NCBI GenBank assembly: GCA_036172245.1
Contig: JAYWIR010000009.1
Span: 186,001-250,000, forward strand
Direction of reading: 5' to 3'
Origin: Raillietiella orientalis
Lineage: Eukaryota
Length of the DNA: 64,000 nucleotides
Within the stretch, counting starts at the first letter, position 1, and each line of letters opens with the position of its first letter. Both the position numbers and the translations under genes were made by a program. A model generated the notes under the pieces. It saw only the letters and a program-made list of their open reading frames with translations, was not told the origin of the DNA and did no database searches. Shown piece after piece: positions 35,201 through 41,028 of this stretch.

Positions 35201-36833
35201 AGAAGAAGAGCATTGACGTGACGACGGAATGTTTCTCATTCTACGAAGAGCGCATTCATCATTGGCTACGGATACGCGTGGAAAACCGCTGCTGCTTGGT
35301 TCATTAATTCCTTTCTACTGTACTCGCGTGCAAACGCATGCTGACCCTCCCGAATCCTCCTCAGGCAAACTGGAGGATGATGAAAATTTTTCGCTTCACT
35401 TCACCTTATTCGTTTGTTTTTATTTATTCCTCTCCCTTCCCCGAAAGATTCGCAGACTGCGACGACCGAACGCAAAATGCAGATGCACTTTTTTGCAAAG
35501 AATTTTTTTGCAGATTAGGATATGGGAAGTCAGTTGCAACTTTCAAACGCTTCTTCGATCTCTCCACGAGCACAAAGGTCCCGTCCGTGCAGTCAGGCTG
35601 AGCAAGAACGACGACGAATGTGTCAGTGCGAGCACAGACGGAACCTGCGTCATTTGGGATCTGAAGTGATGTACACTTTTCTGATCATTCTTAGGGGAAT
35701 AACCGATTACCGCAGACGATTCATACGCAAGCAAATTGTATTCTCCAATGCTCTGTTCCGATCAGTTTGTTATCATCCCTCAGAATGCCAGATAGTAACT
35801 TGTGGCAGTGACAGAAAGATAAGCTTTTGGGAAGTCTTAGATGGAAGCCTCATAAGAGAGCTGGAAGGATCCATCTTTGAAGGAATCAACGCTGTGCAAG
35901 TATCCCCGGATGGAAAGTTTTTGGTCTCCGGATCCTCCGACAAACTTATAAGAGTAAGTCCTCACGCAAGAGCTCAGGCAGAATCGAACCGACTTGAGCA
36001 ATGCGCACACCAATCATCAATCCAAGTCGATGAATGCAAAAAGCAACTTCCTCTCTCTGTCTACCAGAGCCGCACGCGCCGCTCAGCTAACGAGTTCCAC
36101 CGATCAAACGCAGACCTCGCCAGTCTTGCACGTACCGTGTCTTTGCACTGCAGCTGCCCCTATCCACATAAGCCACCTCTTTTGGGACTACTACCGAAAA
36201 ATCCGATAATGTGAAACGGTAAAATTTTATTTGCAGACAATTTCCTTTACGGCAGATTAATGGGATGACCGTGAGGAAAGCATCGGCTTGCAAGAAAGAG
36301 TGAGTCATTTGCTGCAGTTCGCATTGGTCTCGCTTCATGTTGGAACTTTCGTAAGGACGGGCACGAAAACCAACGCGGTTTCGAATTTCGAAAAATAGTA
36401 TTTCGCAAATTCATACATAATGCAAACCTTTCCGACTGCTCGAGAGTGCATGGTCAGCAAACGGAAAAGTGTCGGATCCCATCCAGAAGTGCTCTGGAGG
36501 AAGAATCCTTGCAGATAATTCTCTCAAAGACAGAGAGAGGCACCCTTCCAGGCCTTCCGCGGTCGGAGCCGACCCATGCATTGGCGGCGACATTCGATAC
36601 GGACAGGCGCTCGCGAAGGCGCTTTGCTTTGCTCCTCTTCTCGCGTATCCACAGCAACCGTCTCTAATCCCTCCGTGTTCCAGGTGTGGTTGTACGAAGA
36701 AGGTGAAGTATTCAGGATTGGCGTCGGGCATGGTGGATCGATATCAGGCATCGCCATTTCTCCCGACCAAAAGCACATTGTGTCCGTGGGGTGGGATGGC
36801 GCCATCATGAGGTGGGAATTTCCCAATCACTAG
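8187..36833 (+). CDS. CFAP52: Cilia- and flagella-associated protein 52 (WDR16), WD40-repeat axonemal protein; complete 12-exon gene, 661 aa
   Basis: Exons 8187-8250, 11569-11768, 16407-16584, 22150-22337, 23973-24168, 28561-28712, 28763-28935, 29499-29647, 31712-31857, 35514-35665, 35716-35953, 36684-36833. All introns are GT-AG with consistent phases; total 1986 nt. The translation is colinear with remembered WDR16 (VIGF.G.VP.GL..HP, IASGQ..MGFK, LSLGG.DDGS, GTTTGDILK, AWNDG.IR, SGGGEG, ASTDGTC.IWDL, WEV.DG..IRELEGS, DGAI.RW). Confidence 0.96.
9628..9654. repeat. Imperfect (AGC)n microsatellite
   Basis: agcagcagcagcggcagcagcagcagc. Confidence 0.85.
11569..11768 (+). CDS. CFAP52: CFAP52 exon 2
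   Basis: ctgcag acceptor; KVPNGLHVHPG...IASGQINYMGFK; donor GTAAGA. Confidence 0.95.
14805..15241. mobile_element. Degenerate AT-rich foldback / MITE-like element in CFAP52 intron 2
   Basis: AT-rich island in GC-rich DNA bounded by imperfect ~35-bp inverted repeats, with a central hairpin built from the same GAA(A/G)GATCATAAA motif. No clear target-site duplication. Confidence 0.5.
16407..16584 (+). CDS. CFAP52: CFAP52 exon 3
   Basis: ttccag acceptor; VPTILWNF...LSLGGEDDGSLVVYSVEKRQPLCG; donor GTGAGT. Confidence 0.95.
19542..19560. repeat. (TGA)n microsatellite
   Basis: tgatgatgatgatgatgat. Confidence 0.85.
22150..22337 (+). CDS. CFAP52: CFAP52 exon 4
   Basis: Pyrimidine tract plus cgcag; FPASHG...TLRIWKLNPEKRKI...GHLHRDIRCLE; donor GTAACG. 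Confidence 0.93.
23973..24168 (+). CDS. CFAP52: CFAP52 exon 5
   Basis: ttgcag; VSQNDEFLYAGTTTGDILKIK...TYSG; donor GTGGGA, phase 1. Confidence 0.9.
28561..28712 (+). CDS. CFAP52: CFAP52 exon 6
   Basis: ttccag; GVLSIVILDGGRLLVGTGDG...GLKE; followed by a 50-nt intron. Confidence 0.9.
28763..28935 (+). CDS. CFAP52: CFAP52 exon 7
   Basis: LRSVRLDGGVTTIA...VYVGTGKSHVY...AHVDRIHSVVFP; donor GTGAGT, phase 2. Confidence 0.92.
29499..29647 (+). CDS. CFAP52: CFAP52 exon 8
   Basis: NCSKLFATCSKEDVRVWH...ELLRIPVPNKSC..LDFSKDG; acceptor AAG at 29498 (alternative in-frame CAG at 29507). Confidence 0.9.
31712..31857 (+). CDS. CFAP52: CFAP52 exon 9
   Basis: AWNDGRIRVFTPEKG...VTAIA...IVSGGGEGQ; donor GTGAGG. 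Confidence 0.95.
35514..35665 (+). CDS. CFAP52: CFAP52 exon 10
   Basis: IRIWEV...EHKGPV...ECVSASTDGTCVIWDLK; followed by a 50-nt intron. Confidence 0.94.
35716..35953 (+). CDS. CFAP52: CFAP52 exon 11
   Basis: RFIRKQ...VCYHPSECQIVTCGSDRKISFWEVLDGSLIRELEGS...DKLIR; donor GTAAGT. Confidence 0.95.
36684..36833 (+). CDS. CFAP52: CFAP52 exon 12 (terminal)
   Basis: VWLYEEGEVFRIGVGHGG...ISPDQKHIVSVGWDGAIMRWEFPNH followed by TAG. Confidence 0.95.
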   Translation: MWLYEEGEVFRIGVGHGGSISGIAISPDQKHIVSVGWDGAIMRWEFPNH

Positions 36834-36897: not shown

Positions 36898-36907
36898 AAT
36901 AAATAAA
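36898..36907 (+). terminator. Putative polyadenylation signal of CFAP52
   Basis: Overlapping AATAAATAAA 65 nt after the stop codon. Confidence 0.6.
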
Positions 36908-37467
36908 AGGAGACAGACGGCTTGCTGCAAAGGAATTCGTCAGTTGCTTCGCTTCTGCGCCCGCTATCCCGTAGACTCCCGATGTGGCTTTCGATTTGTC
37001 GTTGGGTCTGCCGAAAGGCCATCGGCGCCACCCGGAATTCGGCAGGTGTCCACGAGGACGGTCCGACTACGAGCCAGTAGTCGGACCGCCGTTTGCCGGC
37101 AGCGCGCTACTGAATGCCAGTTCGAATTCTTCGGACACTGGACGACGACGAGATGCGATGACTCATGAAACTGGGTTTTTTTTTTTTTTTTGTCTGTTGT
37201 TGTTGTTTTTTCCGCCTTCCTCTTCTTTTCCTTCTTGCTTTTCGATCGACCTTTCAAGGTTTGGCGATGGAGCGAAGGAGCGGTCCGCGTTGATGTGGGA
37301 AACCTGGCGCCCACGGCGCGCCGCCGCTCCTCCCGTGGTGCGCAGCGTGCTCGAACGCTGTCGCGTTGCCTTGGTGTGTGCCGTGACAGCTGAGGATGTG
37401 GACGAGTTGCATACGGAACCGACTGAGAAATAAAGAAACAAACAAATAAATGAATTAATGAACAAAC

Positions 37468-38748
37468 ATGGCAGCCAGCGTGTACGCAGTCTGGCTGCAT
37501 GTATTCTTAAGTTTTGCTAGCCATGCCGGTTGCTCCCATGACCTGGATGACGACGGTGTTCAGTTTGCGTCGAAATGTGAAGGTATTCTTTGCCCTTAGT
37601 TAGGATTTGCTGGAATTACTGTGCCGGTGACGTGCGTGGCACAGTAATTTAATCAAGTGTTCGCGCCGTGGCAGTAGATGTTGCTATTAGCTTCTTTCAG
37701 TATGCAAAATTCTTGCCACAGAGTTAGAGGAGAGGTCGGGAAAAACTGGTAGATCCCACGGCGTTGTCGAAACCGGGTACCAGCTGGGAAAAACTCATAA
37801 AAAGAAATACAAGGAATCGTAAGTGCACAATGCAACATATTGCTTTGTATACCATAATAAGCAAGATACTGAACCAGAAATTTTAAGGGAACTTAGATTG
37901 GTGGAATTGTTAGAAGATCTGTGTGAACAAGTGTTGGAATACAAGATACATAAGGAAAGAACTGATAGCACAAGATTTGCCAAAGGAACAAGTCAGACCT
38001 TTCAGACCTTGCATGGTTTAGTGTAGGTGCAGTGGATGCATGCATTAGCTCTTTACATTTGCAATGTGGATAGCATGTCACAATTCTTGAGATTGTTCTT
38101 TCTGCATTGCATGTGAAAGTTTTCCCCAAATTCGTACTGTGCATGCTGATCAGTGTACGTGTTATATGCATCGTTGTTTTTTGGCTGAGTGCTTCAGTTA
38201 AGAGAGAGATTTTTTTCTTTGTTTTTGGTCTCTATAACAGTATGTTCATGCATAAAATGATTACCTGAATGCATTACAGGCTTTTCTTTATGAGGCTCTA
38301 TGTTTCTGTTTGTGAGAATGTTGTTCTTCACCTGGAAAATATAAATGCAATTCAGAGTGCTTAGAATTTCCATTTCTTTGAATACAAAAGTCTATCATTT
38401 TTCAGAGCCAAAGGTGTCAGAGTTGAGTTGGGTATTCCTTATGAATTGTGGGACAAACCGTCGGTGGAGGTGACTAACATGAAATCACAGGTTTGGCATT
38501 AATTCTGTTTGTCATGTAATTATATTTGGTTATAGTGTGAGCAGATGTTAGAAGATCACGAATATGACATAGAAGAGTGGTTTTATAAGTATGAAGGCGT
38601 TAAGTCTTTGAAGCAGTTCTTGTGTTCAGAAAGGGTTTTGGAAAAAGGTCATGATTCCTGCTTATATGAATCGTTGACTGAGAATCCTAGACAGAAGGGG
38701 GATATGGGAACTGGAAGTAACATTCCTCAATTTAAAAAAGATTTATAG
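37468..38748 (+). CDS. Canopy family protein (CNPY3/CNPY4-type, saposin-like ER co-chaperone), 5 exons, 221 aa
   Basis: Exons 37468-37582, 37701-37818, 37888-38022, 38406-38490, 38536-38748. Hydrophobic N-terminus, then [84 protein letters not shown], and a C-terminal KDEL-like KKDL. CNPY3 versus CNPY4 orthology cannot be resolved here. Confidence 0.93.
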
Positions 38749-38778
38749 GGCATTTATCTGAAGACTTTGTAGTATGAC

Positions 38779-38784
38779 AATAAA
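38779..38784 (+). terminator. Putative polyadenylation signal of CNPY gene
   Basis: AATAAA 30 nt after the TAG stop. Confidence 0.55.
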
Positions 38785-38911
38785 ACATGACATTATTTGA
38801 ATAGGTGGAAATGATCCCAACAAAGGTGGGAGGTCTTTACACTGACCATCATTGTTAACCACCCTCACTGATGTATGATTTGCATATGAGAGGTCATATA
38901 AATGCTGTAGT

Positions 38912-39353
38912 ATGGCTAAGGTATGTAATGTAAGAGAGGTGGAAGAAATCAAAACCGGTGAGCCTTCTTCATCTGCAACAACTCCAATCAAAAAACAAAA
39001 AAGTAAGGATTTCTTTGAACAAGGTCTTCATTTCATCACAGTTGATATTTTATTGAAAGCCACTGCTGATGCACCTATAATGAAGCAGAAGAAATGGTCA
39101 GTGGATCCAGATAAAACCGTTTTCTGGGTAACAACGTTCATCAGGAAGTACCTCAAGATACCTGTGGATGAAACCTTGGTAAAATCCATTACCACTGCTA
39201 TTTTTGCCATCGCAGTTGTGGTGTTTTCAGATTGTATACGTGAATCAGTGTTTTGCCCCTGCTCCAGATCAAACAATAAAAAATCTATACATGTGTTTTG
39301 GCTCTACGAACACTCTGGTTCTGCACTACTGTTTAACCCATGCTTGGGGATGA
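38912..39353 (+). CDS. ATG12: Ubiquitin-like autophagy protein ATG12, 3 exons, 116 aa
   Basis: Exons 38912-39002, 39042-39178, 39231-39353 with introns of 39 and 52 nt. Product [22 protein letters not shown]...FIRKYLK...[22 protein letters not shown]...LVLHYC...AWG-stop, with the diagnostic C-terminal WG glycine used for ATG5 conjugation. Confidence 0.96.
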
Positions 39354-39510
39354 ATGTGCATACAGTGCTGAGTTTGAAACCATTTGAACAATAATATACT
39401 TGAATAGCATAACAAGATCCCTGCTTCTATTAATGGTTGCACTTGAGGCTAGTGGAATTATTCATTCACATGCATGGTATCCACAAAACATGTTGTATAC
39501 CTGAACTGGC

Positions 39511-39516
39511 AATAAA
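39511..39516 (+). terminator. Putative polyadenylation signal of ATG12
   Basis: AATAAA about 160 nt after the TGA, followed by T-rich sequence. Confidence 0.55.
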
Positions 39517-41028
39517 ATGTTTTTTCATATTGCATTCAAAATCATGTTGGCCCCATTTTCCTGCAGCAACAGGGAGAAAAACCCTTAAGTGTACTGAATT
39601 TTTATCAGCACTGTAGGCAATTTTTTTTTTTTTTCTTTCACTAACCAACGCGTTTTATGCTCACGTTTATTCTCAAGTCCTTATGCGTTGAAAAAAAAAA
39701 ATGTAAAGATCCTGTTTTTCAGAATGCTGAGTGCATGTGCATGTAACTTCCTGAGGGTTGGAATCTATGTTGACTGATTTCGGGTTTTGTAATGTTATGA
39801 AATTTGCCTTTTGAAACTGGCTGCCTCTTGCAGCAATGCATAAATCACTGATCGGGTGAAATTGTCGTTCGCAAGTAATTTGGAACCTTGAAGTGATTAT
39901 AATTTCCTTAGCAAGCCATTTGCCTTCCTTCTATTGCAGCGCTGCAAATTCGGGCTGTTTATCGAACTTGAAGATTGCTGTTCACGCATAACGCATTCGT
40001 GCTTACACTTCAAGTACTTGGAACTCACCCATGTTCCAATGCAAGAAGTCCTCTTGTCGGCCTTCTTTCTTCGCTCTGCTTTCGGCCAGTTTCAAGCAAG
40101 GCAGCTGCCACACTCTCGCTAAAGGTCTCGTCTCCTCCCACTCGCCAGCAGGGCGCCGATGGGAGCCAAACTGCAACACGTGTTTCGTGTTCTCACCGAG
40201 ATCGGGACAGGGCGTTTGGCCCTCTGTCTGCTGCCCCTTTCCCCCCGTGTGATTCGGTGTGCACGATTCTCCTGTGCACGCAATTTCGTACTGGCAGATG
40301 CATCTGCGGCTTTTCACGTTTTCCTTCCCGCGAATCACCAAAGGAAGGAACCTGCCGTGCCCACACCTCCTTCCTTGATGACCGTTTCCGATCCGAATGA
40401 AGAGCTGCTGGCAGTCGCCACCCCTCCCTCCCCAGGCTACTCGGTTGGTGGCTCGGCCCTTTGCTGGAGTGCCATGCACTCCTCCACTTTGGACGTTTTC
40501 ACCCGCTTTACGTGCTTGCGATGGTTTCTGCCACGCTCGAACAAAGCAGTTTTCTTGGGTGTCGGGAAGTTCCCTTTTTTGCTGCGGCAGTTTTCCAGAG
40601 TGGGCGCCGAAACGCTGCGTCGGGGAGACGCTGAAGGGAAAACGCGGAAGGATTTCTACGGCTCTATTTTGTTCGGTGACCGTTCCCCCGCTACGTCAGC
40701 GGGCAGCACCGCTTTGCCCACACGCGAGTCCAAGCGGACCACGCGCCTGCGCGCCTGCGTTCGATATTGCACTTTCCGGGCTCCGAGGACTCTTCTTGTT
40801 TTCCTTGATCCGGAACACACAGGCATCTCCGCAAGACCAAGGCGGCGGTAACGTATGAATATTCTCCGAATCTTCTCCTCGTGGCACCTATATTTACCAT
40901 CCCCTAATTGCGTTTGCAAATCCCTAACGTTACAGATGTACCGCTGTAATCGAATGCTACTATCCCCAAGTATTCTGACGATGCTGAATTTTTTTTTTTT
41001 TTTTTTTCGATAATTTGGCTTTGTTCGA

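Follow-up and report, generated by a model that had tools for sequence, protein, structure and literature searches.

Head-to-tail CNPY and ATG12 genes in a probable tongue worm genome: an unusually tight pair and a candidate shared transcription unit

Background

In the SL2-type operons of C. elegans, a U-rich element lies between the poly(A) site of the upstream gene and the splice acceptor of the downstream one. In nematodes a donor inside the outron favours cis-splicing, and in flatworms the leader can supply the initiator AUG. The C. elegans operons contain unrelated housekeeping genes arranged head to tail, with the poly(A) signal roughly 100-130 nt before the downstream acceptor; according to the available part of PMC5025045, spacers below 150 nt are common there, more than 15% of genes belong to operons, and these are not enriched for related functions. 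The single-SL operons of Ciona intestinalis and Oikopleura dioica belong to compact genomes and have short or no intercistronic DNA (medians of 1 and about 31-33 bp, respectively, in the accessible text of PMC7986045). Among crustaceans, spliced leaders are described for amphipods and copepods in the accessible portions of PMC5111886 and PMC7986045, the latter giving operons as unreported in them as of 2021.

No leader is needed in Drosophila. The available part of PMC4528330 describes 159 dicistronic pairs; where the transcripts are polycistronic only, stop and start are -34 to 319 nt apart, and at 69 loci one gene occurs in both forms. It also gives 130 genes whose promoters and 5' exons are shared. 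The upstream gene may end at its own poly(A) site as well, and small proteins are over-represented. Our literature search, with subscription papers mostly outside it, returned no report of trans-splicing or a leader in pentastomids among the matches listed and no link between Atg12 and operons.

The window considered here is the whole stretch of DNA that was analysed, 64,000 nt in length. It contains a CNPY gene followed on the same strand, after 163 nt, by ATG12. This pair is real and unusually tight, and it is one of a class in this genome. As in C. elegans, unrelated housekeeping genes stand head to tail and the poly(A) signal is at a comparable distance from the downstream acceptor; unlike there, no SL1-like gene was found, the acceptor is weak, the spacer lacks a U-rich tract and contains a good donor, and tight tandem pairs are rare (two of 56 anchor regions, a lower bound), against the C. 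elegans share quoted above. The tunicate arrangement fits other pairs of this genome, with spacers of 52-77 nt and no poly(A) signal, whereas the CNPY-ATG12 spacer is longer and has its own AATAAA; the phylum is also different, and a leader is only proposed here. The Drosophila pairs are those of another arthropod, and 163 nt is inside their range; here, however, a 221-aa ER protein comes first and an acceptor lies one base before the second start.

Materials and methods

The assembly comprises 210 Mb in 491 contigs. Calibration loci were taken around LSM, proteasome and UBC genes, and a gene finder was trained for this genome. It is rough and both misses and fuses genes (EB1-PSMB2 and PGAP1-STRAP were each merged into a single gene), so its counts are lower bounds, and splice scores rank sites against the introns that the finder itself predicted. 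The 56 housekeeping anchor regions span 10 kb in 20 cases and about 3 kb in the remainder. CpG content was compared between starts in fixed windows, leaving out PSMB3 (not found) as well as PSMA3 and SmD2 (wrongly placed). The exons of CNPY and ATG12 were placed by hand. For EB1-PSMB2 and SARS2-UBE2A-like the domains were matched and the gene names are partly by reading. REXO4-CNBP, PGAP1-STRAP and the WASHC5 pair are a chosen sample, picked for having acceptors. The probabilities of the explanations, given in words, were assigned by judgement.

Results

The source genome is probably that of a pentastomid (tongue worm): these parasitic crustaceans account for three of the four best COX1 hits, the top two among them, at 75-77%. 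Most of its DNA is GC-rich with a CpG o/e near 1. The housekeeping genes are tightly packed into islands that are AT-rich and depleted of CpG; 264 kb contained 10 of these. Predicted introns peak at 40-48 nt, lengths of 36-39 nt occurring in 10 of 252. The anchor regions contain at least 13 convergent pairs, some partners being prediction only, with stops 6-152 nt apart; the 3' UTRs must therefore be tiny or overlapping. A same-strand upstream gene within 300 nt was found in at least two of the 56 regions (EB1-PSMB2 and SARS2-UBE2A-like), a frequency not at nematode operon scale. A predicted 68-nt tandem gap on contig C18 looked like a frame break within one gene and was left out of the count. 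COX1 has 54 matches across the assembly, mostly fragments, which points to many nuclear copies of mitochondrial DNA. We take the GTATCCTT donors in LSM8 and both SmE genes to resemble minor-spliceosome introns.

The CNPY3/4-type gene occupies 37468..38748 of the plus strand (exons 37468-37582, 37701-37818, 37888-38022, 38406-38490 and 38536-38748). The model is intact: its frame of 221 aa has no breaks and ends in KKDL. PF11938 (CNPY/MSAP, saposin-like DUF3456) was matched on four exon frames, in three of the four above the cut-off; the CNPY3/4 subfamily label and the signal peptide come from reading, not from tool results. ATG12 follows at 38912..39353 on the plus strand (exons 38912-39002, 39042-39178 and 39231-39353, one intron being of 39 nt), with an intact frame of 116 aa ending in THAWG, i.e., with a C-terminal Gly. 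PF04110 (ubiquitin-like) was matched with 44.3 and 60.3 bits at a cut-off of 22.8, and a probable poly(A) signal, AATAAA, is at 39511..39516 of the same strand. Searches of the genome revealed one further CNPY-type gene with PF11938; with PF04110, ATG12 was the sole locus found, and no ATG12 retrocopy turned up. ATG12 is a core autophagy gene, so a single copy has to be expressed; since no other PF04110 locus was found, this one must be.

The original prediction described the CNPY stop TAG at 38746-38748, AATAAA at 38779, TAG at 38908-38910, one T and the ATG at 38912, as well as phase-2 donors at 37819 and 38023; all of this is confirmed by the sequence and by the exon models. It also suggested that these donors could join CNPY to ATG12 in frame. 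The phase arithmetic is correct, but the fusion itself finds no support. A signal peptide at the front would send ATG12 into the ER; we reject such a protein as a working product, as ATG12 would enter the ER behind the CNPY signal peptide. The proposed functional coupling of the two genes is without evidence here; C. elegans operons also lack enrichment for related genes (available part of PMC5025045).

Upstream of the pair, CFAP52 lies on the same strand; its frame ends at 36833, which is 634 nt before CNPY, and an AATAAA is near 36900. The DNA that separates CFAP52 from the CNPY start (36900..37467, plus strand) is unique, having no second copy in the genome, the T-run excepted; its CpG o/e is 1.2-1.5. 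We infer that it is the sole candidate promoter zone 5' of the pair. Within 37170-37470 a long T/pyrimidine run ends with AG-GT at 37258 and is followed by a GC-rich stretch of 170 nt that contains an open frame of 58 codons. An A-rich tract just 5' of the CNPY ATG reads on the minus strand as a strong acceptor near 37425.

The spacer was claimed to contain no CpG, and this proved true: with 26 C and 34 G, 5.4 CpG would be expected. A run of 163 nt without CpG is common after stops (12 of 51 genes) and rare before starts (2 of 31), so the spacer looks like a 3' flank. It is part of a continuous CpG-depleted AT-rich domain at about 37800-39650, which extends from the 3' part of CNPY over the spacer and the whole of ATG12, with an o/e of 0.26-0.29 in 38001-39500. 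In the window, the CpG o/e is mostly about 1 and falls only in this domain and in positions 1-2000; the latter form another island of low CpG and hold a multi-exon gene of coiled-coil-like type. We presume that the depletion at about 37800-39650 is a trace of gene-body methylation. The genome has two loci of the DNA-methylase family, and exon-enriched methylation of housekeeping genes is described as ancestral in arthropods (PMC7343188, in the part available). Considering these points, together with the o/e near 1 of most DNA, the informative signal is the depleted domain rather than the CNPY 5' end. That end is CpG-rich, as was noted originally, but it is not a promoter-like island: an o/e of about 1 is the window-wide default, presumably of unmethylated DNA.

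At the ATG12 start the CpG o/e is 0.15 (-300..+100), the second lowest of 33 starts, with 0 CpG vs 5.8 expected at -200..0 and 3 vs 11.0 at 0..+300. For comparison, 31 reference starts have a pooled o/e of 0.83 over the 200 nt preceding them, and the same length of DNA behind stops has 0.36. The nearest low starts are UBE2D (0.14) and UBE2R (0.23); by reading, they have no coding-like frame upstream and look like long 5' introns. The DNA upstream of ATG12 is CNPY, so a distant ATG12 start would mean a shared unit. The depletion across the start thus favours, by inference, the earlier suggestion that ATG12 has no local promoter.

The spacer itself (38749..38911, plus strand) comprises 163 nt with 37% GC, 31% U and seven ATGs. 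The AATAAA at 38779..38784 is 31 nt past the stop and 132 nt before the acceptor. Among 2000 dinucleotide shuffles, 3.2% have such a hexamer within the first 60 nt, and 13 of 51 predicted genes have one no more than 50 nt past the stop; this one is therefore probably a genuine poly(A) signal of CNPY, with the CNPY end near 38800. The TAG at 38908..38910, one base before the ATG12 start, was proposed as a 3' splice acceptor. The motif is present; as an acceptor, it is weak (score 2.7, the 10th percentile of predicted introns, and the lowest among six pairs examined), and a score of at least 2.7 within 10 nt of the ATG occurs in 6.9% of shuffles and at 8 of 30 reference starts. No U-rich element was found in the spacer between the poly(A) site and the acceptor: U does not exceed 9 per 20 nt, and the spacers of the four tightest other pairs are 38-46% U.

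Two donors that were missed earlier would give a plain cis explanation of this TAG. One, after 38825 (score 5.3, 63rd percentile), delimits a predicted intron of 85 nt at 38826..38910 of the plus strand; the other, after 38872 (3.9, 24th percentile), a predicted intron of 38 nt at 38873..38910. The last 45 nt before ATG12 contain four ATGs compared to a mean of 0.9 over 33 starts (LSM1 also has four; TAF5 and LSM3 have three), which favours splicing at 38911. The RNA fold of the spacer has z = -1.9, and Rfam gave no match over the window. Taken singly, the spacer signs are weak.

Other same-strand pairs present a similar layout. PSMB2 (proteasome beta 4) begins, 143 nt past the EB1 stop, with its second codon at a strong acceptor of score 7.0 (G000:C50:1073410-1073553). 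The spacer has no ATG-GT, an in-frame TAG precedes the acceptor, and the more distant upstream candidates are weak (2.9 or less); candidate poly(A) signals lie 133 and 120 nt before the acceptor. The initiator Met must then be supplied either by a leader or by an exon located before the EB1 stop. An ATG-only exon can be distant in cis, as in PSMA1, whose strong ATG-GT donor is found 2.9 kb upstream. In the chosen sample, the spacers are of 77 nt in REXO4-CNBP (acceptor at -5, score 3.6), 67 nt in PGAP1-STRAP (-23, 6.4) and 52 nt between WASHC5 and the next gene (-5, 4.8); all three lack usable donors and hexamers like a poly(A) signal. STRAP (0.21) is as CpG-poor near its start as ATG12, and CNBP keeps CpG (0.83). 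PGAP1-STRAP, REXO4-CNBP and EB1-PSMB2 have cleaner operon signatures than CNPY-ATG12. In SARS2-UBE2A-like, an intronless UBE2A-like paralog stands 290 nt past the seryl-tRNA synthetase gene (G000:C13:1409290-1409581); with CpG around its start, it looks like a retrogene with its own promoter.

Two further loci are mentioned here as observations. LSM2 (G000:C28:1413201-1418053) opens with an acceptor at its second codon; the 4.8 kb upstream yielded no clear ATG-GT exon lying in CpG-normal DNA. CpG-poor coding-like frames precede NAA38 on the same strand (G000:C18:372330-373800, minus), possibly a tandem gene about 350 nt before the start; neither Pfam nor Atlas supported it.

The search for a leader was narrow (one Rfam family, 128 kb and two patterns), and absence from the genome does not follow from it. 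Rfam SL1 was not found among the 50 candidates scored out of 32641 from the first look, and 128 kb around the U1, U5 and 5S loci likewise yielded no SL RNA gene. Of the two patterns combining a donor with an Sm-like site, one gave 90 matches (86 in the control) with no array among them, and the other 110 (78 in the control) with no array among the 100 matches listed. Upstream of 30 U1, U2 and U5 loci there was no snRNA promoter motif specific enough to be searched for across the genome. A dispersed family resembling SL RNA (676 first-look candidates; L175-L180) has a sharp boundary and hairpins, together with a GT resembling a donor, an Sm-like run and a word similar to a 3' box. It was dropped: the donor and the Sm-like run are not conserved across copies, the common sequence extends beyond, and Rfam gave nothing; the best reading is that of a retroelement whose end lies on the opposite strand. 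Two further donor-plus-Sm matches are coding or duplicated DNA. U1 and U5 snRNA copies occur at junctions of related elements of 5.5-6 kb (C51, C189, C8, C15, C3, C13), and the copies of U2 and U4 are many and dispersed.

Retrocopies are another source of leader data. An intronless processed CNBP pseudogene (G000:C22:3060130-3061090) agrees with the gene as far as about the acceptor, with no match to the spacer (p = 0.5); a partial, more decayed copy of exon 1 lies 5' of it. Its end fits a foreign 5' exon or leader, but 5' truncation as well, and the copy is old. Its flank has no match above the shuffled level among the loci compared. Retrocopies of EF1-beta and PSMA7 are also present and can be mined for a leader; the likeness between the 5' flanks of the CNBP and EF1-beta retrocopies is not significant (p = 0.22).

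Discussion

Judging by the genomic layout, CNPY-ATG12 appears to behave like a co-transcribed unit. Over all models with a shared unit, we consider it probable that the two genes are transcribed together. The single best reading is an operon-type unit with leader splicing for ATG12, and we propose its membership in a spliced-leader operon tentatively. A single promoter 5' of CNPY would produce a precursor running through ATG12; CNPY would be cleaved and polyadenylated just past the AATAAA at 38779; and a short leader trans-spliced onto 38910/38911 would give the downstream piece a capped 5' end. Such splicing would put the ATG12 AUG at the second base of its exon and drop the upstream ATGs.

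This operon-type reading agrees with the lack of CpG recovery at the ATG12 start (0.15), where CNPY rather than a 5' intron lies upstream, with the four ATGs in the last 45 nt (mean 0.9), and with the distance of 132 nt from the CNPY poly(A) signal to the acceptor, close to the 133 and 120 nt of the EB1-PSMB2 candidates. It is further supported by the REXO4-CNBP, PGAP1-STRAP and WASHC5 pairs, where acceptors stand 5-23 nt before the ATG and the spacers have no usable donor, as well as by the CNBP retrocopy, which follows its gene to about the acceptor and no further. It explains at once the acceptors 52-163 nt behind long upstream genes and the ATG-less PSMB2. Spliced-leader trans-splicing is known from copepods and amphipods (accessible text of PMC7986045). 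Several observations speak against it. An SL RNA gene was not found with Rfam SL1, around the snRNA and 5S loci, or with the two patterns; the ATG12 acceptor is the weakest of the six and its spacer is U-poor; and a 63rd-percentile donor within the would-be outron should favour cis-splicing. Same-strand neighbours occur in only two of 56 anchor regions (a lower bound) vs 13 convergent pairs, and SARS2-UBE2A-like, one of these two, keeps promoter-like CpG. The three extra pairs were preselected for acceptors, CNBP retains CpG near its start (0.83), and the 5' flanks of the two retrocopies have no significant likeness.

Alternatively, ATG12 may have a compact promoter of its own over the last CNPY exon and the 3' flank, with transcription starting after about 38800, a short first exon ending at 38872 (or 38825) and a 5' UTR intron of 38 nt (or 85 nt) ending before 38911, the pair being merely packed. 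Two usable spacer donors, the 39-nt intron already present in ATG12, the acceptors near the ATG at 8 of 30 reference starts, the very tight packing of housekeeping genes in this genome, the frequent lack of CpG after stops (12 of 51) and a downstream gene at 290 nt in SARS2-UBE2A-like that looks self-promoted all agree with it. Yet CpG is low on both sides of the ATG12 start (0 of 5.8 and 3 of 11.0 expected), against the pooled 0.83 at -200..0, and only about 100 nt separate the likely CNPY cleavage site from the ATG; we regard this explanation as rather unlikely. The CpG-depleted domain, which runs unbroken to about 39650, also fits read-through of the Drosophila type: some CNPY transcripts would skip the AATAAA at 38779 and end at 39511, and ATG12 would be translated from a dicistronic mRNA by internal entry or reinitiation, perhaps after removal of the 85-nt spacer intron. 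The 159 dicistronic pairs in Drosophila (available part of PMC4528330) are precedents, and splicing between the two cistrons would suit the donor after 38825. A canonical AATAAA 31 nt past the CNPY stop, a first cistron of 221 codons, seven spacer ATGs, three of which remain even without the 85-nt intron, and a spacer fold of just z = -1.9 all argue against it, and we consider it unlikely.

It is also conceivable that both genes use one promoter and differ in their cis-splicing, with a first exon that is non-coding and precedes the CNPY ATG joined to 38911, so that CNPY lies inside the first intron of ATG12. Donors after 37045, 37258, 37337 and 37373 score 3.9-4.3, but they are no stronger than many chance donors. 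Long first introns do occur here (2.9 kb in PSMA1), 130 Drosophila genes have common promoters and 5' exons (available part of PMC4528330), and the ATG-less PSMB2 would be accounted for too. However, no acceptor was found within 60 nt of the CNPY ATG (the best scores -1.7), so the usual sharing of one spliced exon by both genes is an unlikely fit, and a weak acceptor would have to beat five CNPY exons and a poly(A) signal. We find this arrangement quite improbable.

CNPY-ATG12 is not the best test case for operons in this genome. If read-through or a compact promoter is the truth, the pair is an ordinary case, as in about 2.5% of Drosophila genes. The wider proposal that tongue worms evolved spliced-leader operons, the first in an arthropod, with CNPY-ATG12 as one of many housekeeping polycistrons and a leader that may give genes like PSMB2 their initiator AUG, is a possibility about which we are doubtful; that the leader itself supplies the AUG to ATG-less genes such as PSMB2 seems highly improbable. 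If leader splicing is true, operons would have originated independently in these animals, within a crustacean lineage whose copepods and amphipods are known to have leaders and had no operons reported as of 2021 (accessible text of PMC7986045), and the gain would be tied to a parasite with compact housekeeping islands. Genome annotation would then have to change, as downstream genes that have no ATG or promoter are otherwise fused or lost.
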